Shown here: in pieces, positions 3,293 to 41,393 of the stretch
Numbering within the stretch: position 1 is the stretch's first letter
How the letters are laid out: every line of letters starts with the position of its first letter
Assembly: GCA_964619325.1 (NCBI GenBank)
Contig: CAZUEL010000001.1
Coordinates: 10,168 to 61,557, forward strand
Direction: 5' to 3'
Origin: Candidatus Woesearchaeota archaeon
GTDB lineage: Archaea; Nanobdellota; Nanobdellia; UBA10117
DNA length: 51,390 bases
Program-made: the position numbers and the translations under genes
The notes under the pieces: model-generated
Database searches by the model: none
What the model was told of the DNA's origin: nothing
Seen by the model: the letters and a program-made list of their open reading frames with translations, nothing else

Positions 3293-4390
3293 TTATTTTG
3301 ATTCGGTTTGTAATTGTTTTTTAATCCACAGTAGAACAGCAAAAAATTTATCTTTTGCCCTGCTATCTGCGAGCGCGCCGAGCGGTAATACGAGCGAATT
3401 GTAATTATTAATATTTTTAATATCTGAGTCGACCTTGGCGCCAGCAATAGATTTTAATTGTTTTAATATTTCAATTCGTTTTTCGGGCATATCAAACGGA
3501 GCCGGTGCTGTGCTTTTTCTATGGTTAGTTACGTGATGGGGCGCATTCCAAGTAATTTCTGCATCGCCAGTTATTGAAAATGGGCAAAACCATGTTTTTT
3601 TATTGGCATAAAACACAGGAATGAAACCACCGCGCTGGCTTGTGCTCCAGCTAATCTCAATACTATTTTTTTCAGCCCAATCAATTATCTGCTGTGCGGC
3701 AGTTACTTCTTTATTGCCGAACTTTTCTTCTAAGTGCTGTTTAAATGATTCCCAGTCCCAGTGCTTTCCAGCACTAGGTGATTTTATATCTTTTTTAACT
3801 TCATCACCATATAATTTCGGAATTATGATTTCATAAGAATCATATTTATAATATTCCAATTGAACTGCATAAATGCTAAACTTACTTTTTTGATTGATAT
3901 AAACAATTAAATCTTTTAGTGCATCATCTATTTTATCCATTATTATTACTAATTTTATATTACCTTGTTCAAAATTTGTTCTTATTTTATCGATAATTAT
4001 TTTGATTTGTTCTTCATCGATTTTGAAAAAATCTTTTACTTTTTCTTCATTAATTTTTATTTTAAGGTCATCAAAATCGCCGTGGCGCCATAGTGATGCA
4101 CCATAATCTAAGGTCTGAGCAACAGCCTCTCTCCGATCAGAGTTTTTATATAATTTAGTTTCGACAACGTAAATATCCCCATCATTGTCAATGGCTAAAG
4201 CGTCGATTGGGCCAGATTCTGTTGAAAATTCTCTTGCTACTACGAAAAGCCTCTTATCTTCATCTATTTCGTAGATTGGAATTGACTCCGGATTATCATG
4301 GATGTATTTTTGCATATAACTTTCTTTCTCAAAACCCAATTTTTTAATCACTTGCGTTCCTTTTCCATTTTTAGTTATTATTATTGCCAT
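3293..4390 (-). CDS. PD-(D/E)xK nuclease-like protein (NucS/DUF91-type core) with extra C-terminal domain
   Basis: GPIDALAIDNDGDIYVVETKL matches the D...(D/E)xK strand pattern of NucS/DUF91-type endonuclease folds. 365-aa ORF. Confidence 0.5.
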   Translation of the reverse strand: MAIIITKNGKGTQVIKKLGFEKESYMQKYIHDNPESIPIYEIDEDKRLFVVAREFSTESGPIDALAIDNDGDIYVVETKLYKNSDRREAVAQTLDYGASLWRHGDFDDLKIKINEEKVKDFFKIDEEQIKIIIDKIRTNFEQGNIKLVIIMDKIDDALKDLIVYINQKSKFSIYAVQLEYYKYDSYEIIIPKLYGDEVKKDIKSPSAGKHWDWESFKQHLEEKFGNKEVTAAQQIIDWAEKNSIEISWSTSQRGGFIPVFYANKKTWFCPFSITGDAEITWNAPHHVTNHRKSTAPAPFDMPEKRIEILKQLKSIAGAKVDSDIKNINNYNSLVLPLGALADSRAKDKFFAVLLWIKKQLQTESK

Positions 4391-6430: not shown

Positions 6431-6793
6431 TTGATGGGCGAACAAGACTTAACTCATTATTTTAACTGCAGAAGTAGGGAGCTGAGCATTGCCACAACTG
6501 GTGCGGGCGCAACTGCACAAATGTTATCAGGGTTTGGCACTCTCAAACTAGCACTATATTGCCAACATTATGGAGGGGGCTTGATACTAGATTTAACCCC
6601 AAAACAGCTAAAAGCAGCAACAGGTTTAGACAGTTTGGCGCAGCCAACCGGCCAACGCGGCAGTTTGGAAGATTGGGCTAATGAAGTTGCTCGCAAAATT
6701 CCAGCAGCGCAACAAGTATTAAGCTGGGTAAAAGTAAATTCTGCCCAAATTAAAACACATTCTGCAGGTAGGCCTGCCATTGATTGGGATTAG
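6431..6793 (+). CDS. Hypothetical protein
   Basis: 120-aa ORF with no recognisable motif. The antisense ORF is less plausible. Confidence 0.4.
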   Translation: MMGEQDLTHYFNCRSRELSIATTGAGATAQMLSGFGTLKLALYCQHYGGGLILDLTPKQLKAATGLDSLAQPTGQRGSLEDWANEVARKIPAAQQVLSWVKVNSAQIKTHSAGRPAIDWD

Positions 6794-7011
6794 TTTTGTT
6801 TAGCCAATAAATTATTTGATTCTATATTTCTTCGTAAGCTTTATTAATACACTTGTCTAATAAATAGGCAACTGAAGCCGAAAATACAAATCGGATTTAG
6901 TACAAAAGCTAGAATGGTAAAAACCGCCATATTGCACTCAATAGAAAGGTTTAAATAAGACATTTGTCTAACATATTAGAACAGCGTTCCGAATTTGAAG
7001 CGTTGTTATGT

Positions 7012-7080
7012 TCGCAAAGCACGGTGCTTTGCGACGCAAGCTGAGCACAGCTCAGCTGCGCCTCGCCCGCGGAGGCGGGC
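7012..7080 (+). promoter_or_regulatory. Three consecutive hairpins/palindromes in the leader of the wHTH gene
   Basis: 7012-7034 TCGCAAAGCAC-G-GTGCTTTGCGA. 7036-7059 GCAAGCTGAGC-ACA-GCTCAGCTGC (one bulged A). 7065-7080 GCCCGC-GGAG-GCGGGC. The cluster ends 6 nt before the ATG at 7087. TATA-like TTTAAATA at about 6950-6957. Confidence 0.6.
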
Positions 7081-7086
7081 TCTGGT

Positions 7087-7377
7087 ATGGCAGGCCGTCC
7101 ACCAAAAGCAAACCAAAAGATTCTGAAGAAGCTCATGGAAGCGCTAGCCAGCAACCCGGAAGGCCTGTGGGTGCGTGAGCTAGCCCGCATCACAAAACTG
7201 GACAAGTCCACCGTCTCGCTCTACCTGAGGAAGTGGCTCTGGGAGGATTTGGAAATCTTCCACGGCAGTCCAAAACCGTTCAAGCTAGTCAGGCTGAAAG
7301 CGTATAAGCATGACGAGTCTGGACACGGAATGAAAGCAGTTACTAGTGAAGAAGCGGTGGCGAGCTACATCGGCTAG
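7087..7377 (+). CDS. Winged-helix (HTH) DNA-binding protein
   Basis: ILKKLMEALASNPEGLWVRELARITKLDKSTVSLYLRKW is a typical wHTH (ArsR/MarR-like) recognition segment. 96 aa. Confidence 0.65.
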   Translation: MAGRPPKANQKILKKLMEALASNPEGLWVRELARITKLDKSTVSLYLRKWLWEDLEIFHGSPKPFKLVRLKAYKHDESGHGMKAVTSEEAVASYIG

Positions 7378-27201: not shown

Positions 27202-27260
27202 GGTGGTGTGTTTAATCAATATCTTTATAAATCCACCATTTCAGCCCCTCTTATGATACA

Positions 27261-27380
27261 ATCTGAACAACCAAGCGAACAAAGTTCGCTGGATCCAGAA
27301 AATTGCAAACAATTTTCTCGGAGTTCAGATGTGCATCAAAATCCCGGGGGATTTTGATTGTAAAGCGAACAAGGTTCGCT
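27261..27380 (+). promoter_or_regulatory. Structured leader: closing stem plus two hairpins (three-way junction) followed by two more hairpins
   Basis: Closing stem ATCTGAAC (27261-27268) / GTTCAGAT (27323-27330). Hairpins 27271-27292 CCAAGCGAAC-AAA-GTTCGCTGG, 27294-27322 (AGAAAATTG...CAATTTTCT), 27335-27358 (ATCAAAATCC-CGGG-GGATTTTGAT) and 27364-27380 AGCGAAC-AAG-GTTCGCT. Confidence 0.6.
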
Positions 27381-27394
27381 AATCATTTCACGAA

Positions 27395-27550
27395 ATGAAA
27401 ACCTGTACCTCATGCAAATCAGACATCACCAATGATAGAGAGGGTACTGGCTTTGCCTGCCCTGCCTGTTCAGAATCAGTTGTAAGATGCGGGCACTGCC
27501 GCAAGACAGGCGCACCATACAAATGTAAGTGCGGATTCGAGGGACCATAG
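27395..27550 (+). CDS. Small zinc-ribbon protein (COG2888-like, commonly next to aEF-1beta)
   Basis: 51 aa, hand-translated: MKTCTSCKSD...FACPACSESVVRCGHCRKTGAPYKCKCGFEGP, with four CxxC-type pairs. Below the ORF-track size cutoff. Confidence 0.7.
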   Translation: MKTCTSCKSDITNDREGTGFACPACSESVVRCGHCRKTGAPYKCKCGFEGP

Positions 27551-27618
27551 TTTCATGCAAACTAAAATTTTAGCCGTTCGTTTAATTTTAGTTGCACCTC
27601 GCCACGGAGGTGGCTCTG

Positions 27619-27894
27619 GTGGCTGAAGTTATAATCAAATTGAGAGTTATGCCAGTTTCACCGGAGTCAGATTTAGCTAAGATAGAGCAATTCTGCCGCG
27701 AGAAGATCGCCGCTGCGGGTGGCAAGCTGCACTCCATCGTCCCAGAGGAGATGGCGTTTGGGCTGAAATCACTTACGTTCACGTTCTTCGGGGATGAGAA
27801 AACGTTGAACCCGGATAAAATAGAGGAAGCGATAAAAACAGATAATCATGTTTCTTCAACTGAAGTGGTTGATGTCAGGCGGGCCCTGGGTTAA
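27619..27894 (+). CDS. Translation elongation factor aEF-1 beta
   Basis: AEVIIKLRVMPVSPESDL...EEMAFGLKSLTFTF...VDVRRA matches the archaeal EF-1beta pattern. I prefer the GTG start at 27619, preceded by GGAGG. The track start is a TTG at 27592. Confidence 0.85.
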   Translation: MAEVIIKLRVMPVSPESDLAKIEQFCREKIAAAGGKLHSIVPEEMAFGLKSLTFTFFGDEKTLNPDKIEEAIKTDNHVSSTEVVDVRRALG

Positions 27895-28486: not shown

Positions 28487-31400
28487 TTAAGAGTTTTGAA
28501 TATCCTGCAGCTGTCCACGTATCCATGCAAGCCATTGGTCTAGTGTTTCCTTATCCATCTGCCCACCCTCCCAACTGTGAACCGCCCAATCGCGGATGGC
28601 GTACAAATGCTCTCTCGTATATGGCTCTTGCGACTCTCGAGTTGCTGTCGCCTCGACTTCTTGCACATCTGCCTCCGGCGGTGGCACATCTTGGTGCTCT
28701 GTCATTGGCTGGGCAGCCAACTGCGGCCAGCCTGCCCGTAGCTCGCTCTGTTGCCAGGCCTGCGGCTGTGGTGAATACACCAACGGACCTGGTGGCGACC
28801 ATTGCTCCCTCTGAGGCCATGCAAACTGCTGCTGTTTTCTCTTCCTGCGGCCATATTCATAAACTCCAAGGCCGGCTGCGCCACCCCCGCCAACAAGTCC
28901 ACCTAATATTAGTGCAAGCGGCAGCTCCTGTTTGTTATTGTTCGGCTTCTTTGCGGTTGCTTCAATATACGCGCGCTCGAATTCATCGCCTGTTATTATT
29001 GGTTTAATGTTAAATGCAACGGGCTTAGCATTAACCCTATCAATAAATACATTCAATGCGCTGGCGCTTCCGTTCGCGACTAAATTCCAGTTGGGTGTTA
29101 CTTCTATGACTTCACCCTGCTTTATTGGAATATCATCCAAAGTAAAGTTCGCAAACCGGCCATTTGTCTGCCCCATTAAGTAACCGCGTAAGTCAAAAGT
29201 CCCATTCGCCGTACCAACCAGCTTGACTTTTGGTTCCACCGGCAAACTAGATGCGATCAGTGCAAAGTGGCTGTCAACTGCGGATCGCGGAATCTCTCGA
29301 CTAGTAGTATTAGACACTTTGCCGTCGAGCTGTAGGGACATATCTGCGGGGCTACCAAGCTCAAAGAGGACTGCATATGCATTAGATAATGTCTTTGTTA
29401 GTATAGAATCTGGATTTCTGTATTCTGGCAACAACCATGGCGCGACAGGTGGCGGGCTAGTAATATTAGCAATTCCATGCAGCCCATTGGCTTTGTATTC
29501 GCCATTAAGGTTAACATCTCCATTATTTATTATTGCACTTAAGTCCACTAACGCGGTGTTGCCGCGATTCAAGACCAAACCCCGGCCATCCCTCCAGACT
29601 GGCGCAGCTGGATTTATGTCGAAGCCGAGCTCGCCCGAACGCCACTGGCCTGCCGCAACAAGTTCTGAAACATTGCTAACATCTTTCTGCTGCCAGACAG
29701 AGTCCCACAATGGAATTGCATGGTCGCGGACCGCAAAGTGGAATGGCTTGCCCGTACTCTTATTCACCCAAACCGCAGAAACCAGCCAGTCATGTTCGTG
29801 ATAGAATGAATCTTCAAACTTACCATAGCCAGAATTTTCAGTTCTATAATAAAAATACATGAACACTTGATGGTCTTGGTAATCCGCCACGTGGGTAAAC
29901 ACCGGATATGCACCATTTAATTTGAATTTCTCCTTGCCTCCGGTGTAGTTATAAAATCGATCAAAGTTAAACGCATTGTTCGTAACATCATTGTCATCGC
30001 CCTGGCCAGCCACCACTCTCGGTAGTGCTGGGTTATGGAACGCAACACTTTGTGTCTCAGGCCGACTGTCAAACTTTATCGTCGGCATAAAATTTGCTAT
30101 GAGTACATCCAGGCCGCTGTCAAGGCCTTTAAAATTGCCAAAGCGCAATCTTTCGGGTTCAGTCCAGGCAACCATATTTTTATTTAATTTAAAACCATCG
30201 CTGCCGTAGCAACCAACATAGTTTGAAAGCATTGTTGCATTACCATTACGCACTAATACTTCGTCAGTACAAGCTCGATAAATTATGTATGTGCTAGCCT
30301 CAAGCGGGAGAAATTCTGTGAGGTCGCGTTCGATCACTCTACTTCTACCAGTTGTTGTATCCAAATGAATGAGTGAATTATTTCTCATTGCTAAAATGTT
30401 ACTGCCTTCGAAAAACGGAACGTTCTTAGCATCTAGTGGATTATAAACTAAATCAATATTTGCCACAAGTTGTCCATTAAGCATGTCTAAAACCGAGAGC
30501 GAATTAATCACATCGTAGGCAACAATCGCCTTGCCTGCTTGTGTGTTAATAAATACACCATCGAATGCACCGCCGCTAATTGATACCGGTACTCCAAAAC
30601 GCGAGACCAGTTGGCCATCGAATTTTAGTAGCGTCAAATCCCGCTCGCTGCTCCCGTTATTTAGGCTGCCACCAAATATCAAATTACCTGCATTGTCATT
30701 GTAGCCCTGTAATGGTAATTTAACTTTTTTAATTGGTAATCCGGTGACAAATACACTATCTCGCCTGAATAAGTTGACCCCCTGTGGGAGCGGTACGTTC
30801 GCCTTCCACGTTCTACTTGAAAAGTCATACGTTGCTAACCCGCCAATGGCTTGTCCAGGCGATACATTTGCAAATAGGATTGTATCACGCCACTGGGCTA
30901 TTGGGTCATATCTGGCATCTGTTTCCAAAAGTCTGCTGCCATTATTATCGAATAAATATCTCATTTCGCCAGCCGGTGTTTCTGCAGCCACAACAAAACC
31001 ATCATCAAAGAATCTCAAAACCTTGCCACAGGTGTTATCTAGAATGAGACTGGTCTTTAAAGAATTTAGAGTAATTCTTTTCAACAGCGTGGCATCACTG
31101 CCGTTCCACTTTGCGCAATAAACTAAATTGCTACCATCTGCGCCGAACAAGTCTTTAGCGTCTGAGATTGACGTAATAAGACTGCCATTCACACCGTATA
31201 CAAATATACGTCCAAGCCCAAGCGTTGAAACTGCAACGAAATTATCCCCAAGCTCAACTTTTGCATTGCCTTGATCTATTGGCACGGTATGAACCGAATG
31301 TAGCGCCGCATTAAAATCCCCTGCAACATCGCTGGCGTTCTTTCCCTCTGGCCAGCTAACCTCGGCTGCTGCGCCCCAGTCAGATCCATCACCAAGAATA

Positions 31401-32092
31401 TAATCAAGTGTGTGCAAAGCCGCGGCTGCTGCCGCACCAACCATCAAGGCTGAAGCTCCAACACTTGCAGCTTTTTTTGCAACGCTCGTTTCTTTTTCTA
31501 GCTCTGCGGGCGCCCCTGATAGGTTCCAAAACTTACTAACAACATCATAAAGCCAGGTTGTAGCTGGCAGGCCGTGCCTATCTGCATAACCTATTTTTGC
31601 ATTAAGTATTGCCTGATACAATCGCGGCGCCCTTTTGCGAAGCAGTCCAGAGAAACGATGATAGACTTCAGTAAACCTTGAATTTGCCACGGCTGGTTTT
31701 AGTATATCTGCAAACGTTTCAAGTAGTGTATCCTCGAGGCCTGCGAGTTCATGCCTTGTGACATCCAATACTTTTCCAGCAGGCAGTACTATTCCCCATG
31801 CAATTTTATCGATTAACTGCGGCAGTCTTTCCCGGAGTTCTGGCAATTCTCCATAAAATGCGTCATAGCTACCTGCAAAATGTGGCTCTCCAGTATCACG
31901 CGCGTAAATCTCTACTTCTGTTGGCGTGGCCTTAGTTCCATTGAATTTATACATAACATCTACTACGCAGTCTCCGACAGTAAACGTATGAACAATGTCG
32001 TGCCTGCCAGCAGCCAAATCTGCCTTCGCTCGTGCATACCGCCTCGCGGCGGTTTCGAGGCTTACTAGCTTCTGACTTAGCTCGTTTGTCAT
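28487..32092 (-). CDS. Giant (~1200 aa) surface protein with two TM helices and both termini predicted cytoplasmic
   Basis: About 220-aa N-terminal soluble domain, then Ala-rich TM SVGASALMVGAAAAAALHTL. An ~800-aa beta-rich region with many N-x-S/T sequons follows, then TM LPLALILGGLVGGGGAAGLGVY and RRKRK plus a P/Q/W-rich tail. ATG 32092 lies about 26 nt from the palindromic TATA. The ATG at 32125 lies inside that TATA. Confidence 0.75.
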   Translation of the reverse strand: MTNELSQKLVSLETAARRYARAKADLAAGRHDIVHTFTVGDCVVDVMYKFNGTKATPTEVEIYARDTGEPHFAGSYDAFYGELPELRERLPQLIDKIAWGIVLPAGKVLDVTRHELAGLEDTLLETFADILKPAVANSRFTEVYHRFSGLLRKRAPRLYQAILNAKIGYADRHGLPATTWLYDVVSKFWNLSGAPAELEKETSVAKKAASVGASALMVGAAAAAALHTLDYILGDGSDWGAAAEVSWPEGKNASDVAGDFNAALHSVHTVPIDQGNAKVELGDNFVAVSTLGLGRIFVYGVNGSLITSISDAKDLFGADGSNLVYCAKWNGSDATLLKRITLNSLKTSLILDNTCGKVLRFFDDGFVVAAETPAGEMRYLFDNNGSRLLETDARYDPIAQWRDTILFANVSPGQAIGGLATYDFSSRTWKANVPLPQGVNLFRRDSVFVTGLPIKKVKLPLQGYNDNAGNLIFGGSLNNGSSERDLTLLKFDGQLVSRFGVPVSISGGAFDGVFINTQAGKAIVAYDVINSLSVLDMLNGQLVANIDLVYNPLDAKNVPFFEGSNILAMRNNSLIHLDTTTGRSRVIERDLTEFLPLEASTYIIYRACTDEVLVRNGNATMLSNYVGCYGSDGFKLNKNMVAWTEPERLRFGNFKGLDSGLDVLIANFMPTIKFDSRPETQSVAFHNPALPRVVAGQGDDNDVTNNAFNFDRFYNYTGGKEKFKLNGAYPVFTHVADYQDHQVFMYFYYRTENSGYGKFEDSFYHEHDWLVSAVWVNKSTGKPFHFAVRDHAIPLWDSVWQQKDVSNVSELVAAGQWRSGELGFDINPAAPVWRDGRGLVLNRGNTALVDLSAIINNGDVNLNGEYKANGLHGIANITSPPPVAPWLLPEYRNPDSILTKTLSNAYAVLFELGSPADMSLQLDGKVSNTTSREIPRSAVDSHFALIASSLPVEPKVKLVGTANGTFDLRGYLMGQTNGRFANFTLDDIPIKQGEVIEVTPNWNLVANGSASALNVFIDRVNAKPVAFNIKPIITGDEFERAYIEATAKKPNNNKQELPLALILGGLVGGGGAAGLGVYEYGRRKRKQQQFAWPQREQWSPPGPLVYSPQPQAWQQSELRAGWPQLAAQPMTEHQDVPPPEADVQEVEATATRESQEPYTREHLYAIRDWAVHSWEGGQMDKETLDQWLAWIRGQLQDIQNS

Positions 32093-32114
32093 TCCCGTCC
32101 ATGGCACGAAAAGG

Positions 32115-32122
32115 TTTATAAA
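32115..32122. promoter_or_regulatory. Palindromic TATA box shared by the divergent giant-protein and pilin-like genes
   Basis: TTTATAAA is centred about 26 nt from ATG 32092 (minus strand). On the plus strand it lies about 27 nt upstream of the AGAGG-ATG region at 32146-32157. Confidence 0.5.
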
Positions 32123-32154
32123 CATCTCGCTGCTTATTCAGCTTAAGAGGTAAA

Positions 32155-32634
32155 ATGATGGCCACGAAAGGACAGGGCTTGCCACTAAACTTAATAGTTT
32201 TAGCAATAATTGCAGCGCTAGTTTTAGTGCTGGTAATCGCATTCACTGTTGGTGGCGGTGGCGCAGCATTCAGCAGGATTTTCAAGGTCGGCTCGACGGC
32301 AGTCGGAGAGGATATCGACTCTGTCCGAGCAGTATGCAGGAATGCATGTTCAAATGCAGAGCTAAGTGTACAAAGTGCACCACAGTGGCCGAGCGCGGAG
32401 TACTGCAAAAAGGGGTTTAACATAGACAGAAACGGCGATGGGAAGATTGAAGATACGGTTGCCGGCGGCGCGACAACAAAAGAACGCAGCATAAGGTGTT
32501 GGGACGAGCCAGTGTCGGTTAGTTGCCAGTTTTCAACCACCGGAACAACCTCGCTATTAGTGAAAAGCCCGGATACAATACTTACAAAGGTTGACAAATC
32601 AAAGTGTGATACCGAAGACGTGACTGCAAGCTAA
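32155..32634 (+). CDS. Pilin-like protein with class III signal peptide and EF-hand-like loop
   Basis: MMATKGQ-GLPLNLIVLAIIAALVLVLVIAF. Cys pairs CRNAC...YC. DRNGDGKIEDTV loop (32425-32460), then RCWDEPVSVSC. Confidence 0.7.
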   Translation: MMATKGQGLPLNLIVLAIIAALVLVLVIAFTVGGGGAAFSRIFKVGSTAVGEDIDSVRAVCRNACSNAELSVQSAPQWPSAEYCKKGFNIDRNGDGKIEDTVAGGATTKERSIRCWDEPVSVSCQFSTTGTTSLLVKSPDTILTKVDKSKCDTEDVTAS

Positions 32635-32635
32635 A

Positions 32636-33031
32636 ATGAAGCGTGGTGTTATAACATTTGATGTTATTGTGTATGCCATAATTGCAATTGTTCTGTTAGC
32701 AGTTGTTCTATTTTTCATTTCCGGTCCCGTAAGTGCGAGTTTCAAGCAGGCAAAGGCAGCTTCGGAGCCTACAGAAGGCGATGTAGTTGCTGCACAAAGC
32801 AGGTGCAACCAATACTGCCTGCAAGCCGGCAGTTTAAGCAATTCGGAATTCTGGCAGCGCTCGTCCTACTGTACAATAACCTCTGCATTTGATAAAAATA
32901 AAGATGGGCGAATTTCAGCAGACGAAAAAATTAATTGCTGGCAAGCACCAATACTAGTGGACTGCTCGACTAAGATAAGTGGAATATCTGTCGATCAAAA
33001 TAGCTGTCAACCGGCTGTTGTTGTTCCTTAA
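32636..33031 (+). CDS. Pilin-like protein with class III signal peptide and canonical EF-hand loop (paralog of previous)
   Basis: MKRG-VITFDVIVYAIIAIVLLAVV. CNQYC...YC. DKNKDGRISADE (32891-32926) fits D-x-N-x-D-G-x-I-x-x-x-E. Followed by NCWQAPILVDC. Confidence 0.7.
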   Translation: MKRGVITFDVIVYAIIAIVLLAVVLFFISGPVSASFKQAKAASEPTEGDVVAAQSRCNQYCLQAGSLSNSEFWQRSSYCTITSAFDKNKDGRISADEKINCWQAPILVDCSTKISGISVDQNSCQPAVVVP

Positions 33032-33078
33032 CAAAATTATTCGCCCAGTCATTGACACACATACAAGGCATGCATAAT

Positions 33079-34482
33079 TTAGGTGGTAGGGTTCAAGAAT
33101 GACATTACAAGTTCTTCCGTATCAAAAATTAAGCCTATCTGCGCGGTGGAAGAGTCCGCTGGCGTAGCAAGCAGATATGCAACGTGCCAGGCATCGCCAT
33201 CTTTGATCTCTGGAGCCACGAGGCCCTTTAACCAAAGTTGATTTGAGTAACCACAGCGTGGCTGGCAGGCCCCCGGATCGGTACACTCATTATTCTCTAG
33301 CGTACTGCATAGGTTTGTCTGTTCCATAACTCGCGTAATGTCTGCTTCAGTTATTTTTAAATCACCAATGTTTTCTATCTTTGCTTTGAAACACGCGTGA
33401 TTCGAATGTGCGCGGGCGTTGTCTTCTGCGCCTGCACCGTAAGTTAACCAACAATCTGCAGCAAGATTCGCAAGCTGTGCTGCCCCGCAAGAAACCCTAT
33501 CGCCCTCATCCGCCGCTTGCGTATTTGATGCTACGGGAGTAGTTTCCCCAACTAGTTGTGGCATAGAACTTTGCGCCCGTAATTGTGAGCTGGGCTTCCA
33601 GCCATAACTACCATCAGGATCGCAGGCAGACCAGTCACTGGCGCTGATCGTTACCTCGGTCTCACTATCTTCTGTAGCCTTGGCTCTGCTCGCAAAAGTT
33701 GATATCACTTCAACTGAGTCCGCGGGTAAATTACCTAAATCACAGCCGAAATCATTTATCAAAACAGCATCCTCCCAGCTCGCCCGTTCGTCAAAACACA
33801 TGACGTTATATTTTGACCTAACTACGTTTGGCCAAATCAGTGAGATTGGGCCATTATCTTTAGTATGAACATTTCCACGCCATACGACATTCTCAGAATT
33901 ACCGCAATATATTGGACAGCTGCCCCATGGATCTGTTATAGTACCTGACCCGCCACAATACTTATTGTTGAATCGGCTCGCTTCAGTACAATAACCAAGT
34001 GTATCCATGCCCTTAGTAAAATCAAGTTCCGAGAATTCTCGATTAGCCAACCCTTTGATCGCAAACGAGAAGCATGGGTACTTACCAGTTTCGTGGGCAC
34101 TAAGCTTCCATGTATCTTCACCATACATATAAAAGCACGTTTTTGCTAACTGTGCAATCTGTATTTTCGCACAATTGAATTTATCTTTGTTTTTTTTCAA
34201 ACTGAGAGCTTCATCCGGGTCACATTTCTTCCATGCGCCCGCGTCTATATCTAAAGATTGCGCGTGGCAGAATAGATTTACGACCGCCCACTTTGTTCCA
34301 ACAGGTGCCTGATTTTTGACGTGCATATTAAACCGACATAAATCAGTCAGCGATTGAGATATGCCTGGGCCGCCAACCGCTTCTGCGATCGGCGCAAAAA
34401 CACTAATTATTAGTACACCAACAACTATCGCTACTATTATAACTGCGAGCAGCGTGGTGGTTATACCTTTCCTTGACATCAT
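33079..34482 (-). CDS. Large Cys-rich pilin-like protein (class III signal peptide, internal duplication)
   Basis: MMSRKG-ITTTLLAVIIVAIVVGVLII. About 20 Cys by hand count. Two related modules (LAKTCFYMYGE...CFSFAIKGL... and LAADCWLTYGA...CFKAKIENI...). Confidence 0.7.
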   Translation of the reverse strand: MMSRKGITTTLLAVIIVAIVVGVLIISVFAPIAEAVGGPGISQSLTDLCRFNMHVKNQAPVGTKWAVVNLFCHAQSLDIDAGAWKKCDPDEALSLKKNKDKFNCAKIQIAQLAKTCFYMYGEDTWKLSAHETGKYPCFSFAIKGLANREFSELDFTKGMDTLGYCTEASRFNNKYCGGSGTITDPWGSCPIYCGNSENVVWRGNVHTKDNGPISLIWPNVVRSKYNVMCFDERASWEDAVLINDFGCDLGNLPADSVEVISTFASRAKATEDSETEVTISASDWSACDPDGSYGWKPSSQLRAQSSMPQLVGETTPVASNTQAADEGDRVSCGAAQLANLAADCWLTYGAGAEDNARAHSNHACFKAKIENIGDLKITEADITRVMEQTNLCSTLENNECTDPGACQPRCGYSNQLWLKGLVAPEIKDGDAWHVAYLLATPADSSTAQIGLIFDTEELVMSFLNPTT

Positions 34483-35165
34483 CTGCCTGAGGCCTCCTTA
34501 AAGTTTTTGTAATTGTCACATGTTACTGCTATTTTAATGTTTGCGCCGCCTGCTGCCATGAGCGAAGGCACATCGACAATATCCCAACAAGAATCTGCTA
34601 TTTTCTTTCCGTTTTCGGTTCTACCAGAACATATTTTATTTTCGCCAAAGCAAAATAATTTTCCGCCGGTATTTGTGCATTCTAGACCAGTTGCATCCAC
34701 CTGTCCCGGTGTGGCAATTCGTTCCTTCTGACCTATCCCTGACACTTGAATGTTTCGTGCAGAGCCCAAAATCTCAATCTGATTTTGCGAAACTATTGTC
34801 TGGAAATCATATGCGGGCGGTAAGTCTACTATGTGCATACCCGTGCTCAGGTTCACGCCCAAGAACTGGCGCATATTTGATGTTAGCTTTGCATCAAATT
34901 CCTCTTTATTCAAGGTTGAAAAGCAGCCTGCGGGCCGCGAGTCATCAAGCGCACTGTATGCCGCATACTTCACAGCATTTTCTAGGTATGCTCTTGCGCC
35001 TTCAAGTTCGTAGTAGCTTTTCAGTGCCATTGATTGTTTTAATCCAATGCTTGCGGTAAATTCGAAGTCACTGGCCTGCTTGCCGCCAAGCAATGCAATC
35101 ACACCGATTATTACTAGCAGCTCTATGAAGGCGAGCTGTCCCTTTCTGTTTCTTAAATCAAACAT
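34479..35165 (-). CDS. Pilin-like protein (class III signal peptide, KGQ type)
   Basis: MFDLRNRKGQ-LAFIELLVIIGVIALLGG. ATG 35165 lies 1 nt after the upstream stop. Its stop overlaps the next ATG (ATGATG/TGA). Confidence 0.7.
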   Translation of the reverse strand: MFDLRNRKGQLAFIELLVIIGVIALLGGKQASDFEFTASIGLKQSMALKSYYELEGARAYLENAVKYAAYSALDDSRPAGCFSTLNKEEFDAKLTSNMRQFLGVNLSTGMHIVDLPPAYDFQTIVSQNQIEILGSARNIQVSGIGQKERIATPGQVDATGLECTNTGGKLFCFGENKICSGRTENGKKIADSCWDIVDVPSLMAAGGANIKIAVTCDNYKNFKEASGR

Positions 35166-35166
35166 C

Positions 35167-35730
35167 TTAGTGCTCCAACGCCAATTCAATGCTTATTGGC
35201 AATTCTGGCTCACGCGATGGAACCGTTTTTGAACAAATATCGAGCTCGGATGCTTTTTCCAGCGTACCAAATATGCGCGGCGCCCCAATGTCTTTTACAG
35301 TTATGCGCCACTGGCTTGGGGAATTATCCCATCTCCGGTAGTTATTATTCATAAAGACGGTTGTGGCGTCTTCGAACTTTTTTGCATACGCGGGATTATC
35401 TGATGCGATTGCAAGCAATTCTGCAAACGTAAATGTTCTCTCAAAAGATGACTGCGCGGCTGTGATGCCGTGGAGGCTCGGTAGGCTTTGCGTATCACCG
35501 TCTAATACAGCACCAGAATCTGCGCGCAGGAAATTTATCAGGCCAATATCACACACTCGCGATACAGATACTTCCTCTATTTTTGCTTTTATGCTAATAT
35601 CTGAACTAGCATGATTGAAAACTGTGAGGGCCAGCCCAATTATTAGTAACACTATTACAACACCAATTATCTCCGGAATATGTTCTGCAAACACGCCGCC
35701 GCGCTTGTTTAGTTTAAACACACCTATCAC
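35167..35730 (-). CDS. Pilin-like protein (class III signal peptide)
   Basis: (GTG start) IGVFKLNKRGG-VFAEHIPEIIGVVIVLLIIGLAL. Overlaps the upstream gene by 17 nt. Confidence 0.65.
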   Translation of the reverse strand: MIGVFKLNKRGGVFAEHIPEIIGVVIVLLIIGLALTVFNHASSDISIKAKIEEVSVSRVCDIGLINFLRADSGAVLDGDTQSLPSLHGITAAQSSFERTFTFAELLAIASDNPAYAKKFEDATTVFMNNNYRRWDNSPSQWRITVKDIGAPRIFGTLEKASELDICSKTVPSREPELPISIELALEH

Positions 35731-36280
35731 CCTCTGACATATTTATTGCAATTTTTATACGCCCATCGCTAAACTTTCCATTTTCAAAGAATTTTACTAT
35801 GTATGTTTCTACAAACGAAGTTTTAAGATTTTGCAGGCCTATACTTGCCTTTTTATCACCTAACGCGCCATAGGCTTCAACCACAAACCTATCTGTTTCG
35901 AGACAGCTTCTTACTCTTGTTCCACCATCTGCAGAAGTAAGTTTAGCTAAATCAATTATGCCTGCGCGGACTTGGTGCTTTTGCGCTGAAGAAACGGCGG
36001 AATCAAACCAAGTTTTGCTGCCGTACAAAATATCGCCGCTTGGCAGGCCTCCAACCGGTTCTTCCCATGCCAGGCAAGTTGCAGAATTTATCACTCGCGC
36101 GGCGAGCAGCGTGAACTCGATATTTTTTGTGTGGCAGGTTTTTTCAACAGTAATGTTTTCAGCAAATCTATTCACACCCATTATCGCAGCCAACAATATC
36201 AGCATACATACGAATACATAAACAATGACCTGGTTTACTTCCGTCTCCTCCGACTGGCCTTTTTTTCCAACAAATATCAT
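35714..36280 (-). CDS. Pilin-like protein (class III signal peptide, KGQ type)
   Basis: MIFVGKKGQ-SEETEVNQVIVYVFVCMLILLAAIMG. Confidence 0.6.
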   Translation of the reverse strand: MIFVGKKGQSEETEVNQVIVYVFVCMLILLAAIMGVNRFAENITVEKTCHTKNIEFTLLAARVINSATCLAWEEPVGGLPSGDILYGSKTWFDSAVSSAQKHQVRAGIIDLAKLTSADGGTRVRSCLETDRFVVEAYGALGDKKASIGLQNLKTSFVETYIVKFFENGKFSDGRIKIAINMSEGDRCV

Positions 36281-36281
36281 T

Positions 36282-36914
36282 TTAATTAATTATAACTGGA
36301 TTTAATACGGCATAATTTTTTTCACTCCAGCAAGCATCACAATGTGCACGCATTATGAAAAGCGTGTTTGCCTGCGCCGCTTCGCCCTGCACGAAAACAT
36401 TTTCATCTTTGTTAAATTCTGTAATTGCCTTTCTAATTTTCACACCAGCAACTTCCGCACTGCACTCGCCCTGCGCGCCACTAACATAACAAGCATTGTA
36501 CTGTAACATATCACTGCCAATCGCGTACGCGCCATATATTGGAATAACAAACTTCATCGATGTGCCAAACGTTTCCCAAAAACCCTGCTTTTCCAGCGAA
36601 ACGCCTTCTGCAGTCCCCCGCATAAAATTAACCTTGCCAAAGTACGCGATAGTTTTACGTGGCCCGCCGATACCTACCTGTTGGTATATGCTTTTTCGCT
36701 CCTTGAACGCGGGTGCCTTTGCTGTCAAAACAACATCCTCTGGAGCTGCGAGAACTGTCATTCCAGTGAGCGCAAACTCTTTAGCAATTACTGCTGGCTC
36801 CTCCTTAATTATAAACGAAAAAATCTTCAGGCCGATGACAAGCGTCATTGCTATTATAATCATTACGCCGATCGCTAATATCAGGCTTGTTACGCCTGTT
36901 TTGTTATTTGTCAT
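36282..36914 (-). CDS. Pilin-like protein (class III signal peptide)
   Basis: MTNNKTG-VTSLILAIGVMIIIAMTLVIGL. 1-nt gap to the next gene. Confidence 0.65.
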   Translation of the reverse strand: MTNNKTGVTSLILAIGVMIIIAMTLVIGLKIFSFIIKEEPAVIAKEFALTGMTVLAAPEDVVLTAKAPAFKERKSIYQQVGIGGPRKTIAYFGKVNFMRGTAEGVSLEKQGFWETFGTSMKFVIPIYGAYAIGSDMLQYNACYVSGAQGECSAEVAGVKIRKAITEFNKDENVFVQGEAAQANTLFIMRAHCDACWSEKNYAVLNPVIIN

Positions 36915-37222
36915 TGGTATAGCAGCTTGCTAAGCACTGCCCAGAGTACGATAATAAAAATTGTGAGCAGTACGAGGCCAATTATTGTCATGACGGCTGG
37001 GTCCATGCCATGCTTGTTTTTCTTGAATAGTCTACCGAGCGGCGCAAACGCAAGCGGTGCGATTAGTGGCACCTTCTCTTTTAACTGCGCAGAACGATCT
37101 TTCCAGATAGAGTAACCGAAATAAGCAATTAAGGCAAACGCAGCTAGTGTTATCACTAAGTAAAATAATATTCTTCCGGTTTCCCACTGTCCTTTTCTAT
37201 TGTTTTTGCCAATTTTTTCCAT
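36911..37222 (-). CDS. Small two-helix membrane protein with KGQ-type N-terminus
   Basis: MEKIGKNNRKGQ-WETGRILFYLVITLAAFALIAY plus a second C-terminal helix. 4-nt overlap with the downstream gene. Confidence 0.55.
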   Translation of the reverse strand: MEKIGKNNRKGQWETGRILFYLVITLAAFALIAYFGYSIWKDRSAQLKEKVPLIAPLAFAPLGRLFKKNKHGMDPAVMTIIGLVLLTIFIIVLWAVLSKLLYQ

Positions 37223-37238
37223 TTTTCACCTCACTACA

Positions 37239-38039
37239 CTAAGTAACGTAATGGCACTCATACGTACAGTAAACCTGACCTGTTTGTGCAGACATGCCTG
37301 TCGATCCTGAATTAACCATGCATGGGCCAATCTCCCCTCGTTTGTGTTCTGTGAGAATCGGCTGGCCAGACAACGTGCTAGTAACTTCTGTAATATCACT
37401 TGCAAACTTACTTGGTCCGCACTCGATTCTTCGAGGCCGGCCTGCGGAATCAACTAAATAATTATTTTCTTCATCTAATTCTTCAACGCCACTTGTGCAC
37501 GCGCGGGGCGTAAACATGAATTTAGCCGGGCATGTCCACAGCCTCGCAACGAATGGAACTGAGCTGCGTTCGTTTGCTTCTATGTCAGTTGGTGGCGCCG
37601 GGTAAAAATCAAAATTATCTTCGCCCCCGTACGTGCTAAACGACGCGCCATTCCAATATGCAATCTGCGAGTTTTCGCCGCAAACAGCAACATCTGCGCC
37701 GGAAATACCAGACTCGCCAACATTAGAGACAACTGCTTGCGATTCCATCACGCCATCGCTCATGACACTGCCGCCACTAGCGCTTTCGGGATCGCCTATT
37801 TTAGGTGACCTACAACTTGCTCTTAGTGGAAAGCTGTCGAGTTTAATATCTGGCAGGTCCCGCGTTTGTATTAAATACGCGCGCCGCGATTCCTTGAATG
37901 CCTTGTTCTCTATGATGTCTTTGGACTTTTTTGTAAGGCCAGCTTGCACGCTCCCCACTATCCACAGAGAGACTGCCAGCACAATCAATATGACAAGTAT
38001 GAACATCACTATCGAGATGCCCCCTTTCCTCGTAGCCAT
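37239..38039 (-). CDS. Pilin-like protein (class III signal peptide) with CARDB-like end motif
   Basis: MATRKGG-ISIVMFILVILIVLAVSLWIVG. VEELDEENNY motif. ATG 38039 is about 26 nt from the TATA at 38062-38069 (leaderless). Confidence 0.7.
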   Translation of the reverse strand: MATRKGGISIVMFILVILIVLAVSLWIVGSVQAGLTKKSKDIIENKAFKESRRAYLIQTRDLPDIKLDSFPLRASCRSPKIGDPESASGGSVMSDGVMESQAVVSNVGESGISGADVAVCGENSQIAYWNGASFSTYGGEDNFDFYPAPPTDIEANERSSVPFVARLWTCPAKFMFTPRACTSGVEELDEENNYLVDSAGRPRRIECGPSKFASDITEVTSTLSGQPILTEHKRGEIGPCMVNSGSTGMSAQTGQVYCTYECHYVT

Positions 38040-38061
38040 GTTAATTTGAATGCCATATTAG

Positions 38062-38091
38062 TTTATAAAACTTCACAGAAATCTTATAAAC
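38062..38091. promoter_or_regulatory. Two back-to-back TATA boxes for divergent leaderless pilin-operon genes
   Basis: TTTATAAA (38062-38069) serves minus ATG 38039. TTATAAA (38084-38090) serves plus ATG 38112. Both sit at about 25-27 nt. Confidence 0.55.
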
Positions 38092-38111
38092 GCCGGCATA
38101 GTACATCTGTT

Positions 38112-39332
38112 ATGGCCGCTAATCAGGTTCCCGCAACACTCGTGGTAATCAGTATAGCGATTGTCGCACTGATATTTTTTTTAGGATTATCGGGAATTTC
38201 CGGTGCCAAAATTTCAAACATTTTCGCCCCGCTGCTAAGTTCTGTGTCTGAGCCCGCCAAGCCTGAACTAGTTGCGAGCGTCAGTTGCATTAACGAAGAC
38301 TTCCCGGCCGGCAGCCCGCTGAACGGCGTGGCAACGCACTCCACACTTACAATTACCGCAAAAAACAGCGGTGAAACAGACGCTAGGCCCAGCAGAGGAA
38401 TTACAGCAAGGGTTTTCTGGTCCGGCTTTACGTACATCGCACCAAGCGGTCAGGTTACGTCTCTTTTCTTAAGCACCAGAAACAAAATCGAAAAATTTGT
38501 GGCTGCAGATATAAGCCACGCAAGGCCTGCGACGGGCTCGTACGCCACCCCATATTCACAGTGCCTTGATGACGGCCTGTCCAAGAGCGAAGTATGCCTG
38601 CTCTATGTTCTTGGGGAAGACCAGCTTCCGATAAATGATAACGCGCCGCCCGGAACATATGAAATAGAGCTAGACGCGCCGGCCCCGGGCAATGTTATAG
38701 AAGCAAAACAAGAATTAAACAAAGATAGCACTGAGTGTGCTGGCACAGTTATGAAAGATTGCCTTACACAACCCGCACAGGCATCTGGCGCAGTGTTCTG
38801 TAAACCTGAGTGCAGGAATTATGAGCGCAGTGGTTTTAGACAGACCGTTGGCTATGACTGCGGTGGCTGTATTAATCCAAAACAAATTACGCAGCCGGAA
38901 GTCGATGATAGTGATCCGGTCTGCACGGACAGCTGCGGCTGTGCCTGCCCACCAGAAAGCCTGAATTATGAAAAGTACGGCCCGCGCTATGACAAATACC
39001 ACCAGATACCACCTGGCGAGCGCTGCGGAAGAAAACTGCCGGACATAATTATGTTGTTAGATACACAAAATTCCCTGCGCGCATATAACAATGGACTTGG
39101 TGATACAAAACAACCATTTGTTGTCTGCATAGATGTGAAGCGCACGAGTGACGGCCTGCCAGTACGACAAACCGAGGAGCATACAGTGAACAGCAACATA
39201 CCGCCAGGCGGATTTGCCTCTCTAAACTATCAAAAAGCCACACTTGGAACAACTGTAGAAGTTACTGCAGACTGCCAAGAAGAAATAAAAGAACTAGACG
39301 AGACAAATAATGGGGCAACAAAGCAGTTTTAA
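38112..39332 (+). CDS. Cys-rich secreted/anchored protein with CARDB-like motif
   Basis: I chose the in-frame ATG 38112 (MAANQVPATLVVISIAIVALIFFLGL). The track start at 37944 overlaps the divergent gene and both TATA boxes. About 17 Cys, including CTDSCGCACPP. C-terminal KELDETNNGATKQF. Confidence 0.7.
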   Translation: MAANQVPATLVVISIAIVALIFFLGLSGISGAKISNIFAPLLSSVSEPAKPELVASVSCINEDFPAGSPLNGVATHSTLTITAKNSGETDARPSRGITARVFWSGFTYIAPSGQVTSLFLSTRNKIEKFVAADISHARPATGSYATPYSQCLDDGLSKSEVCLLYVLGEDQLPINDNAPPGTYEIELDAPAPGNVIEAKQELNKDSTECAGTVMKDCLTQPAQASGAVFCKPECRNYERSGFRQTVGYDCGGCINPKQITQPEVDDSDPVCTDSCGCACPPESLNYEKYGPRYDKYHQIPPGERCGRKLPDIIMLLDTQNSLRAYNNGLGDTKQPFVVCIDVKRTSDGLPVRQTEEHTVNSNIPPGGFASLNYQKATLGTTVEVTADCQEEIKELDETNNGATKQF

Positions 39333-39354
39333 AGTTCGGAGTTATGGTGGCAAC

Positions 39355-39627
39355 ATGAATAAAACGGGCGCGTCGCTATTTGAAGTTTTGATAGCAGTCA
39401 TAGTTGCAGTTGTTTTATTTTTCCTTTTCATAAATTTTTTAACTGAAACTGTTGGCGGTGCCGGCAAGCAGACACTCAAATCTACCGATGTTGTAAATGC
39501 TTCGGAGTGTATTCCAACGCAAAGACTGGCTGGTTGCAGCGATGTATGCGAGCAGTCCTGCTGCCATTGTCCAACATACTGCGGACGGGCAGATGAAACC
39601 ATCCGGCAAGGGGAAACCTGCAGTTAA
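39355..39627 (+). CDS. Small pilin-like protein, Flp/type-IV-like N-terminus with Glu at +5
   Basis: MNKTG-ASLFEVLIAVIVAVVLFFLF (internal ATG 39355). Cys-rich C-terminus CSDVCEQSCCHCPTYC. Confidence 0.65.
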   Translation: MNKTGASLFEVLIAVIVAVVLFFLFINFLTETVGGAGKQTLKSTDVVNASECIPTQRLAGCSDVCEQSCCHCPTYCGRADETIRQGETCS

Positions 39628-39629
39628 AT

Positions 39630-39761
39630 CTATTTGGCGAATTTGAAGAGTTCTAACACTGCATCAAACGCCTTGTCCAAAGTTCCCGTGACAACGAGTG
39701 CAATTAATATAACTGCTATCACAACAATTGCAACTACAATTAAATAGTTTATTATTTCCAT
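39630..39761 (-). CDS. Tiny single-helix protein (43 aa)
   Basis: Hand-translated MEIINYLIVVAIVVIAVILIALVVTGTLDKAFDAVLELFKFAK. Sits 6 nt downstream of the stop of gene 39768..41132. Below the track cutoff. Confidence 0.45.
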   Translation of the reverse strand: MEIINYLIVVAIVVIAVILIALVVTGTLDKAFDAVLELFKFAK

Positions 39762-39767
39762 GTTTAT

Positions 39768-41132
39768 TTACCTGGACAGCAGTAATGCCGACGGCCTTGC
39801 TGCACTACCGCCCGCATCCAATGCATATATATCGCTTTGCGGTCCGTACACTGTCGCCTGACAGACTGTAGCCGGATTTTCTACATTTAAATCTATTGAT
39901 TTTGAAGGTGAATCACGTATTTCATCCAGATTTATAGAAAATATGTGGCCAGATACGTAGGGCAATAATAACTCGCCATCCATCGCGGAGAAGCCCTCGA
40001 GGGTTACACCAAGTGGAGTTGAAATTGTCAGTTGCACATGCTCTGGCCTATCAAAACAAACATAATCCTTGGTATTTCCCTTCCTGAAGCAAGCATACTT
40101 GTTTGATAAAACTATTGCGCCGGGCTCATAATCAAGCTGGCCTTTAATTTGTGTCACTGCACCCGTTTTAAGATTTTTTACGCCAACAGACCATTTGCCT
40201 GCAGACAGTTGCGCGTACGGCAGCTCATCGCCAGAGAGCCTGCCTGCCACAATCTTGCCTGGCGCACTAATTGCCGGCAGCGCCCCTGCTTCGGTTAGGC
40301 ATTGCAAAACATTTTGTGCGGAATTATAACATAAATACTTGTCACTTCCCGTTGCCGGCGCGCTAATGTCATAGACAGTAGATTCAGCGACGCTTGGGCG
40401 CGCATCTTTCTTGACTTTTACTTTATCTAATTCATAGCGATTTAATATTACTCTGCCAAGCACATCTCTTGCAAAAACATGAACGCTATTACCCAAGACT
40501 GCTGGACTTTTGAGCACAGGTACAAATTCTTTTGTTGTCAGAATAACTGTACCGTCAGAGTTTCTGGCACAAAATGTGCGGCTCCTTTCCGTGTGATCTA
40601 TAGATACACCATCGCGAAACTCAGTTGGGTAAAACGTTCCGCAAGTATAATCTGAACTTGCTGCCAGGTATTGAATTTTCAAATCTTTGCCTAATCGCCC
40701 AGTACACCACTCTCGCCCACTCAGGGAAAACTTGCATAATTGTCTGCCGAGGCCGGCATATAGTGCCTCGGGGCGGAGCTCCAGAGCTGCGCCGCCGGCA
40801 CTAGCGCCCTTAGTCGCGGTAACCTCGAAAATTTTATTGCAGCTGCGCTTGTTTGCACATGCTACGCCAGATGTGAGCGTTGGCAGTGTCTCAAATGCAC
40901 CGACAAAGCAAACATCATCTGCGGTACCTCCTACGTTTCCTATGGGCAAGATTTCTGGTGCCCCCGCTCTTAATATGTTTGCGACGATGTTTTCGCGCTC
41001 TTCAAAAAGCCGTGGGCCTGCCTGAAAACCCAAAAACGATAGTGCCACAATAAGCACGATTATAACTAGTAGCAAACCACCGAACCATGACGGAAACATA
41101 TATCCACGTTTCAACTTGAATTTCATCTTCAA
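39768..41132 (-). CDS. Large pilin-like protein (class III signal peptide)
   Basis: (TTG) KMKFKLKRG-YMFPSWFGGLLLVIIVLIVALSFLG. An ATG alternative exists at 41126. Beta-rich, 454 aa. Confidence 0.65.
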   Translation of the reverse strand: MKMKFKLKRGYMFPSWFGGLLLVIIVLIVALSFLGFQAGPRLFEERENIVANILRAGAPEILPIGNVGGTADDVCFVGAFETLPTLTSGVACANKRSCNKIFEVTATKGASAGGAALELRPEALYAGLGRQLCKFSLSGREWCTGRLGKDLKIQYLAASSDYTCGTFYPTEFRDGVSIDHTERSRTFCARNSDGTVILTTKEFVPVLKSPAVLGNSVHVFARDVLGRVILNRYELDKVKVKKDARPSVAESTVYDISAPATGSDKYLCYNSAQNVLQCLTEAGALPAISAPGKIVAGRLSGDELPYAQLSAGKWSVGVKNLKTGAVTQIKGQLDYEPGAIVLSNKYACFRKGNTKDYVCFDRPEHVQLTISTPLGVTLEGFSAMDGELLLPYVSGHIFSINLDEIRDSPSKSIDLNVENPATVCQATVYGPQSDIYALDAGGSAARPSALLLSR

Positions 41133-41287
41133 CCAAACCCCTTTATCGGCCTGCCAGCTAGCGCCTGCAGGCCACCGCCTTTTACTAACACCAGCCAGCC
41201 GACCAACAATGCGGCTATTATTATTATCAACACCGTTGCCAAAACCAATAGGGCAAAATTGCTTGTTGCAGCGCTTTCGTCAGTCAT
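41129..41287 (-). CDS. Tiny single-helix protein (52 aa)
   Basis: Hand-translated MTDESAATSNFALLVLATVLIIIIAALLVGWLVLVKGGGLQALAGRPIKGFG. Overlapping start/stop with both neighbours. Confidence 0.45.
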   Translation of the reverse strand: MTDESAATSNFALLVLATVLIIIIAALLVGWLVLVKGGGLQALAGRPIKGFG

Positions 41288-41388
41288 GTTAGCGTTACCA
41301 CCGTCAATGCTATTGCTATCGCGACCAAGATTGCAATGATTGCGATCACGCTTCTAACTATCCAAAGCTTCCATGCGGTTTCTGCCAT
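41284..41388 (-). CDS. Tiny single-helix protein (34 aa)
   Basis: Hand-translated MAETAWKLWIVRSVIAIIAILVAIAIALTVVTLT. ATGA overlap with the next tiny ORF. Starts 5 nt after the platform-gene stop. Confidence 0.4.
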   Translation of the reverse strand: MAETAWKLWIVRSVIAIIAILVAIAIALTVVTLT

Positions 41389-41393
41389 ATTAC

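Follow-up and report, generated by a model that had tools for sequence, protein, structure and literature searches.

Bacterial repetitive extragenic palindromes (REP) and the mosaic clusters that they form (BIME) are among the closest known counterparts of the sequences reported here (PMC3733652, PMC2817692). They are imperfect palindromes, 20-40 nt long and with a bulge or mismatch that is conserved, fall into sub-families that differ by complementary stem changes, occur as opposite-orientation dimers and in larger mosaic clusters, sit occasionally in frame within genes, and are co-transcribed with neighbouring genes. A conserved GTAG or CGTC tetranucleotide marks one end of a REP, outside the stem (PMC3733652). 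Genomes hold tens to hundreds of REP copies or more, 3′ of genes, together with a genome-associated RAYT; the REP/RAYT-type systems treated in PMC3733652 and PMC2817692 are bacterial. Rickettsia palindromic elements (RPE), likewise bacterial and ~100-150 bp long (PMC10969869; PMC3733652), lie in frame in unrelated housekeeping genes, to which they add a peptide segment, and also in non-coding DNA. Two further comparisons are useful: prokaryotic MITEs, including Correia elements and the archaeal MITEs of Sulfolobus and haloarchaea (PMC10969869), and structured 5′ leaders such as riboswitches, RNA thermometers and ribosomal-protein leaders. Our literature searches returned no description of such palindromic repeats in DPANN archaea, a result that is not proof of their absence.

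We analysed a 51,390-nt stretch of DNA, hereafter the window, from a Candidatus Woesearchaeota archaeon (GCA_964619325.1, contig CAZUEL010000001.1). In it, three genes (loci A, B and C) carry an array of short hairpins between promoter and start codon; the genes around them, and at one locus also the orthologues, are leaderless. A preliminary description had taken the hairpins of locus A and their relatives for a conserved RNA element or a dyad operator family; the conserved hairpin family is real, and neither of the two proposed identities is supported. We consider instead, with a probability of roughly 0.72, that the hairpins are copies of dispersed, apparently mobile short palindromic DNA modules in groundwater DPANN archaea. 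REP/BIME elements and RPE are the closest known kinds, and REP/BIME- or RPE-like selfish repeats are apparently the best reading. The features of the three loci are as follows.

6950-6957, plus strand: TATA box TTTAAATA of the winged-helix (wHTH) gene, kept in the orthologues L001, L002 and L003
6958-6969, no strand assigned: palindrome AGACA-TT-TGTCT, outside the hairpin repeat family; a candidate operator, judging by its position
7012-7034, plus strand: hairpin 1, TCGCAAAGCAC-G-GTGCTTTGCGA, with a CGC/GCG base
7035-7060, plus strand: hairpin 2, an X module, C-GC-[A]-AGCTGAGC ACA GCTCAGCT-GC-G; first half of an X-Y doublet
7061-7085, plus strand: linker CCTC, hairpin 3 and tail TCTGG; second half of the doublet
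7087-7377, plus strand: gene for a 96-aa winged-helix protein with a weak HTH_IclR/ArsR match, 3′ of the array
27224-27232, plus strand: TATA box TTTATAAAT of the Zn-ribbon/aEF-1beta operon
27259-27360, plus strand: 102-nt hairpin array, present or absent in the population
27364-27397, plus strand: a shorter X-like hairpin and the last hairpin (27384-27397), which takes in the ATG at 27395
27395-27550, plus strand: gene for a 51-aa HVO_2753-like zinc-finger protein; aEF-1beta is next, at 27592-27894
50195-50293, minus strand: array of locus C, directly before the ATG at 50194; TATA box at 50349-50342

The three adjoining hairpins of locus A (7012-7034, 7036-7059 and 7065-7080) agree in coordinates and letters with the preliminary description, the last one stopping 6 nt 5′ of the ATG at 7087, and the TATA-like box placed there at about 6950 is TTTAAATA. 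The core of hairpin 2 (7036-7059) reads GCAAGCTGAGC-ACA-GCTCAGCTGC and has an unpaired A in its 5′ arm; hairpin 3 (7065-7080) reads GCCCGC-GGAG-GCGGGC. This middle hairpin does recur on the plus strand at 27271-27292, as CCAAGCGAAC-AAA-GTTCGCTGG. The minus-strand copy, GCAAGCTGAAC-TAA-GTTCGGCTGC, is also present, at 50251-50274, one base off the position first given for it (50250-50273). At locus B, an outer hairpin, ATCTGAAC/GTTCAGAT, whose 8-bp helix joins 27261-27268 to 27323-27330, encloses in its loop an X-Y doublet (X at 27271-27292, Y at 27297-27318); a hairpin at 27335-27358 follows, and then a fourth, shorter X-like copy at 27364-27380 (AGCGAAC-AAG-GTTCGCT). The array of locus C, read on the minus strand, consists of a hairpin ACCCGC..GCGGGT (50293-50276), an X module (50275-50250), the Y module AGAAAATTGC-AGA-GCAATTTTCT (50246-50224) and a last hairpin TTTGTTTT..AAAACAAA (50219-50195).

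The basic module is a hairpin of ~22-26 nt with a stem of 8-11 bp, a loop of 3-4 nt and a conserved bulged A. Its best-defined form, X, is CGC-[A]-AGC-N-GARC / loop / GYTC-N'-GCT-GCG, and is usually followed by Y, a related hairpin in opposite orientation, to give a doublet of ~50 nt (48-56 nt). At three loci the X model also picks up the hairpin that follows X, on the opposite strand and with 28-30 bits, which indicates that X and Y are related hairpins placed head to head. Doublets and other hairpins are joined, sometimes nested in loops, into mosaic arrays of 2-7 hairpins. X (GCAAGC..GCTGC) is common to loci A, B and C, Y (AGAAAATTGC..GCAATTTTCT) to B and C, and a GC-rich hairpin (RCCCGC..GCGGGY) to A and C, with the order of modules differing among the three. 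Mosaic arrays were seen in the window and in L058, and a Micrarchaeota contig carries two of them, with 4-7 hairpins and modules in common. The arrangement of X, GCCTC, GC-rich hairpin and T(A/C)(C/T)GG found at locus A occurs also in L003, L121, L147 and other contigs of the same runs, and the X-Y doublet of locus C is likewise found in other contigs of these runs.

Short palindromes with a conserved bulge, sub-families with complementary stem changes, opposite-orientation dimers, larger mosaic clusters, occasional in-frame copies within genes (below) and, by prediction, co-transcription with neighbouring genes are all shared with REP/BIME. The REP tag is missing here: there is no GTAG, and four of ten copies have GACG (CGTC in reverse complement) before X, with its CG belonging to the stem. 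The elements described here also differ in being DPANN-archaeal, in forming arrays that in the window lie in 5′ leaders and not 3′ of genes, and in their apparently modest copy number (the window has three arrays in 51 kb, and each run adds no more than a handful of contigs with near-identical copies). The window sequence revealed no RAYT gene, and none of its ORFs has a RAYT-type domain (IS200/IS605-type tyrosine transposase).

Scanning a genome collection (one genome per species) with the X pattern gave 116 matches, mostly chance occurrences in high-GC bacteria, and the chance matches served as a control set. A metagenome scan gave 24 matches, of which about 3-4, on groundwater metagenome contigs, are apparently true family members; the single match in a viral-contig scan was a chance one. 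Clear family members from the genome scan lie in MAGs with the labels Nanobdellati (one MAG, two contigs), Woesearchaeota and Micrarchaeota. In the sequencing runs, contigs that belong to more abundant organisms and reach 6.3 kb matched in the X or X-Y region only, their flanks being unrelated. Across ten archaeal copies, 99% of pair cells are paired, bearing out the earlier claim of a conserved hairpin family with compensatory changes. Twenty of 30 positions are invariant, including the stem-base CGC-A-AGC and GCT-GCG and the GC that comes after, and covariation is seen at two places in the stem (UA/AU/CG/GC/UG and AU/GC). At the two free stem positions, 9/10 and 10/10 archaeal copies are paired, compared with 28% and 52% of 127 chance matches. 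A covariance model built from the ten copies (R1) gave strong matches in the window only at hairpin 2 of locus A (47.8 bits) and the X module of locus C (46.5 bits).

Covariation alongside an invariant stem base also speaks for the best-surviving rival explanation, a conserved cis-acting RNA element. On this view, the invariant CGC-A-AGC/GCU-GCG base and bulged A of the X hairpin would be the recognition site of a shared RNA-binding protein or of the ribosome, and the array would be a functional leader controlling the translation or stability of a set of mRNAs. We judge this unlikely, yet it has the most in its favour among the alternatives. All window copies are sense to their downstream gene, as had been noted, and by our own tally the doublet is sense to its host gene in about nine of ten contexts, a bias that would also suit a role at the RNA level. 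The X module of locus C contains one U.G pair, which is tolerated on the sense strand only, since the opposite strand would have an A.C mismatch, and the motif is kept across MAGs of distant DPANN lineages. If the dispersed-module reading is right, covariation among paralogous hairpins should not be taken as proof of a regulatory RNA. The doublet reading frames are mostly stop-free, from which we draw no conclusion because sequences so short are often open by chance.

The TATA-like box lies 137 nt (A), 171 nt (B) and 155 nt (C) upstream of the ATG. None of these loci has another such box closer to the start codon, so the arrays should be transcribed. Many genes of the window have a TATA-like box 26-32 nt before the ATG, in line with the proposal that the neighbouring genes are leaderless. 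Judging by the position of its TATA box, transcription of the wHTH gene would start at ~6978-6984, and its mRNA should bear a ~105-nt leader with three or four stable hairpins. The GGAG reported in the loop of hairpin 3, 11 nt from the ATG, is part of a GGAGG (7071-7075, loop and 3′ arm) that ends 11 nt before the ATG; elsewhere in the window, genes with leaders have GGAGGT-like sequences 6-10 nt 5′ of the ATG. Given the GGAGG in the last hairpin and these sites in other leadered genes, the locus A array may be retained for supplying or modulating ribosome binding. The display of GGAGG in a loop is a further point for a cis-acting RNA. Against it, there is no Shine-Dalgarno sequence near the ATG at loci B and C, and the genes downstream of the three arrays have no common function; the 420-aa protein encoded 3′ of the locus C array (48932-50194) has no Pfam domain and no homologue but itself among 5.8 billion clustered proteins.

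Comparison of the wHTH leader among relatives gave evidence in both directions. An exact look-up of the window's wHTH protein and ThrRS returned no record, and the wHTH protein has only three homologues in a large protein collection. One of them, L003 (81% amino-acid identity, on a short metagenome scaffold), retains all three hairpins. Its hairpin block is 91% identical to that of the window, compared with 65% for the unstructured part of the leader, and every difference keeps pairing: the stem of hairpin 1 is 2 bp shorter at the apex, symmetrically, and hairpin 2 shows a compensatory T-A to G-C change. This contrast is consistent with selection on structure, counts in favour of a cis-acting RNA, and fits the idea that the array supplies or modulates ribosome binding. 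By contrast, L001 and L002 (79% amino-acid identity, GCA_023245115.1) keep the TATA box and AGACA-N2-TGTCT but lack the whole block, which appears as a clean 61-column alignment gap. A ~85% identical relative, present in all four groundwater metagenome runs that hold the window, has 31 unrelated bases instead of 6994-7085; the boundaries at locus A are therefore not clean (92 nt in place of 31 nt). Its absence from L001, L002 and this co-occurring relative indicates that the hairpin block is not fixed in the wHTH leader. A gene-specific leader should be conserved across orthologues, and this one is not.

Variation at locus B is more sharply delimited. The array there ends in CAATC...GATTG and has TA on each side. 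Contigs of more abundant relatives match the locus B promoter (27213-27247/52) and then continue as TTGCATGGATAGAAAGTGTG; in these contigs the ATG lies ~28 nt 3′ of the TATA box and ATGGATAGAAAGTGTGTATCGTGCAA reads MDRKCVSC. On this spacing, the zinc-finger gene is leaderless in those relatives. In run X1, a unitig joins 27256 directly to 27361 at a depth of 3.4, against 6.9 for the full form, marking a minor allele; the 104 nt missing from it (27257-27360) are the 102-nt element plus one flanking TA copy. Another contig, in which ACAATCTGAACAA is followed by GTTCAGAT..., has the outer hairpin without the nested X-Y, indicating that in the window the doublet occupies the loop of a hairpin older than itself. 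Another copy has CA on both sides. Leaderless relatives and an allele lacking 104 nt of the array again count against a cis-acting RNA as the primary nature of the hairpins.

Presence/absence polymorphism at orthologous sites is a trait shared with MITEs, as are small size, a non-autonomous nature and, by prediction, the capacity to be transcribed in mRNAs and to alter expression. The element of locus B, for its part, shows 5-nt inverted ends and a TA on either side. The differences are that most copies here have no clear terminal inverted repeats or target duplications, that the units are far shorter, and that no parent insertion sequence is known.

As a separate observation, the leaderless ATG of the relatives persists in the window at 27253, where it now opens a 34-codon ORF through the hairpins (27253-27357). 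In the allele without 27257-27360, this upstream ORF has 13 codons and an ATGA overlap with the real start at 27395, an arrangement that suggests termination-reinitiation translation.

Copies within coding genes, all of them outside the window, argue further against a leader RNA and link the modules to RPE. In L121, a doublet lies in frame within a Nudix (Ap4A hydrolase-like) gene, and comparison with PDB 3u53 and 3i7u revealed a ~20-aa insertion exactly there. In orthologues of this Nudix gene (70-80% identity), in-frame insertions occur at three independent sites, each of them a hairpin doublet. Among the close orthologues, two have the L121-type insertion and two have none, while one orthologue carries a different 54-nt X-Y doublet elsewhere, CCAAAGCCGAGC-AAA-GCTCGGCTTGG CCC AGAAAACGC-AAG-GCGTTTTCT TGGG. 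In the Nudix gene of L146 (1880-1995), a hairpin insertion near the C-terminus lies between the duplicated GCAGAAAAATACCTA / GCGGAAAAATATCTT (AEKYL). A doublet in an EndoIII gene (L008) coincides with ~24 additional N-terminal residues, and one in antisense in an Rpp30 gene (L136) with ~26 additional residues; both are probably insertions. A doublet that is translated in Nudix, and probably in EndoIII, and antisense in Rpp30 is hard to reconcile with a regulatory leader. Palindromic repeats in frame in unrelated housekeeping genes, adding a peptide segment, and occurring also in non-coding DNA, are shared with RPE. The size is not: the units here are ~50-nt doublets of two ~24-nt hairpins, assembled into mosaic arrays.

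The L146 insertion shows a peculiarity of its own, in that the original coding sequence forms one arm of the new hairpin. Such an origin of the arm hints at template-switch or snap-back synthesis for some hairpins.

Comparison with known RNA families did not identify the hairpins as a described element. An Rfam search of the whole window gave no matches at gathering thresholds, and in E-value mode the three leaders gave only chance-level matches at E up to 1, the best sub-threshold match being CRISPR-DR28 (23.8 bits against a threshold of 35). The arrays share with structured 5′ leaders the stable hairpins between a transcription start, here predicted, and the start codon, and the involvement of one hairpin with a Shine-Dalgarno-like GGAGG. 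They differ in that the hairpins are not bound to a gene family, are absent in close orthologues and occur also in coding regions. With the block missing in relatives, coding and antisense copies, and no Rfam match, a gene-specific cis-regulatory RNA is not supported as the primary nature of the hairpins. A secondary effect on expression at the RNA level is possible, given the 91% conservation of the block in one orthologue and the GGAGG in the loop.

Several other candidates were considered and rejected. CRISPR repeats do not apply because there is no spacer array and the Rfam match is sub-threshold; H/ACA or C/D sRNAs have the wrong size, and their boxes are missing; intrinsic terminators are excluded by a divergent upstream gene; and split-tRNA leaders were also discarded. 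A tRNA/tmRNA scan gave no match.

The window encodes no transposase or HUH endonuclease, and under the mobile-module reading we therefore infer mobility from presence/absence differences and from the multiple contexts in which the modules occur. As the REP tag and the RPE size are lacking, no transposase is found in the window and locus B alone has clean insertion ends, we propose a mechanism of spread by analogy. The modules would spread as selfish or recombination-prone DNA, like REP/BIME and RPE, with a hairpin-recognising enzyme acting in trans as the likely agent. As a consequence, normally leaderless genes would gain structured leaders of ~100-140 nt, and an inserted array may, as a secondary effect, alter translation or the stability of the mRNA.

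A dyad operator family was the second identity put forward in the preliminary description. We regard such DNA operators, to which the wHTH protein or some other dimeric regulator would bind, as highly improbable. The sequences are palindromic and one array lies upstream of a wHTH gene, as such operators might be. However, the hairpins of locus A lie ~30-100 nt 3′ of the predicted transcription start, beginning ~30 nt from it and reaching the ATG; stem letters change with pairing kept, a form of compensation that operators do not need; and the conserved one-sided bulged A breaks the dyad symmetry. Copies within coding sequences and in distant lineages are a further objection. Archaeal repressor operators are expected as a dyad over the TATA/BRE or the start, with conserved half-sites, which describes the palindrome at 6958-6969 and not the hairpins. 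AGACA-N2-TGTCT, beside the TATA box, is thus the better operator candidate: its AGACA/TGTCT arms, directly 3′ of the box, are invariant in four of four orthologues, with TT, AT or TC at the centre.

Independently of the hairpins, the position of this palindrome beside the TATA box of a wHTH gene makes it a likely autoregulatory operator, as a candidate. About 115 nt further upstream, a block at 6833-6857 conserved with L001 (TTTATTAATACACTTGTCTAATAAAT) contains a TATA-like run and, after it, ACACTTGTCT, which is similar; the block is possibly a second promoter/operator that serves an unannotated transcript.

An origin of the hairpins by chance, as unrelated palindromes in GC-rich intergenic DNA, would suit the total of eight perfect hairpins with stems of at least 8 bp, which does not exceed shuffles (5.6 ± 2.8), but this explanation can be set aside, since five of the eight fall in three leaders making up ~0.6% of the window, the X pattern has four matches in the window against none expected (100 shuffles), the leaders fold with z = -3.7 (A), -6.7 (B) and -4.0 (C) against dinucleotide shuffles, near-identical modules occur in other genomes, and X-pattern counts, pairing relative to control matches and covariance-model scores together refute it. 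The total hairpin count is not significant alone; the signal lies in clustering and sequence relatedness. None of 200 shuffles reached the observed fold energy for leader A, B or C, so the structure first claimed for locus A stands. When both strands of the window were folded in sliding segments of 70 nt, these leaders ranked among the most extreme outliers.

A broader proposal, to which we give somewhat less than even odds, is that the modules are a hitherto undescribed family and the first REP-/RPE-like system to be reported from archaea, mobile across DPANN and entering hairpin loops, the 5′ ends of leaderless genes and, in frame, housekeeping ORFs, with some copies co-opted as translation-control leaders. 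Such arrays might, for instance, expose a Shine-Dalgarno sequence or be coupled to a leaderless upstream ORF that has been retained. If the dispersed-module reading is right, small-genome DPANN archaea bear active or recently active tiny palindromic repeats, which would remodel 5′ ends from leaderless to long structured leaders and add peptide loops to conserved enzymes. Annotation would be affected, with arrays creating false ORF extensions and false "riboswitch-like" leaders, and the arrays would bear on how archaeal initiation copes with a suddenly acquired leader.

Some minor observations were made along the way. In L001, two similar hairpins, CAAACCC..GGGTTTG and ATCAAAACC..GGTTTTGAT, lie at 3425-3490, ~250 nt further upstream, and are bordered by an 8-nt direct repeat, ATGTCACA, that resembles a target duplication. 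In the window, a 119-aa ORF (6434-6793) separates ThrRS from the wHTH gene and has no Pfam match; it may not be a real gene, and L001 has no gene called in the matching 600-nt spacer. A 93-aa ORF at 21508-21789 matches only the first 58 of 302 positions of a diphthamide synthesis profile and is perhaps a gene fragment or split gene. Finally, 13 consecutive predicted ORFs without a Pfam match, including ones of 1212, 702, 467, 452 and 406 aa, occupy 28487-43502 and adjoin a T2SSE-type secretion/pilus ATPase gene (43719-45998), raising the possibility of a lineage-specific cell-surface locus.
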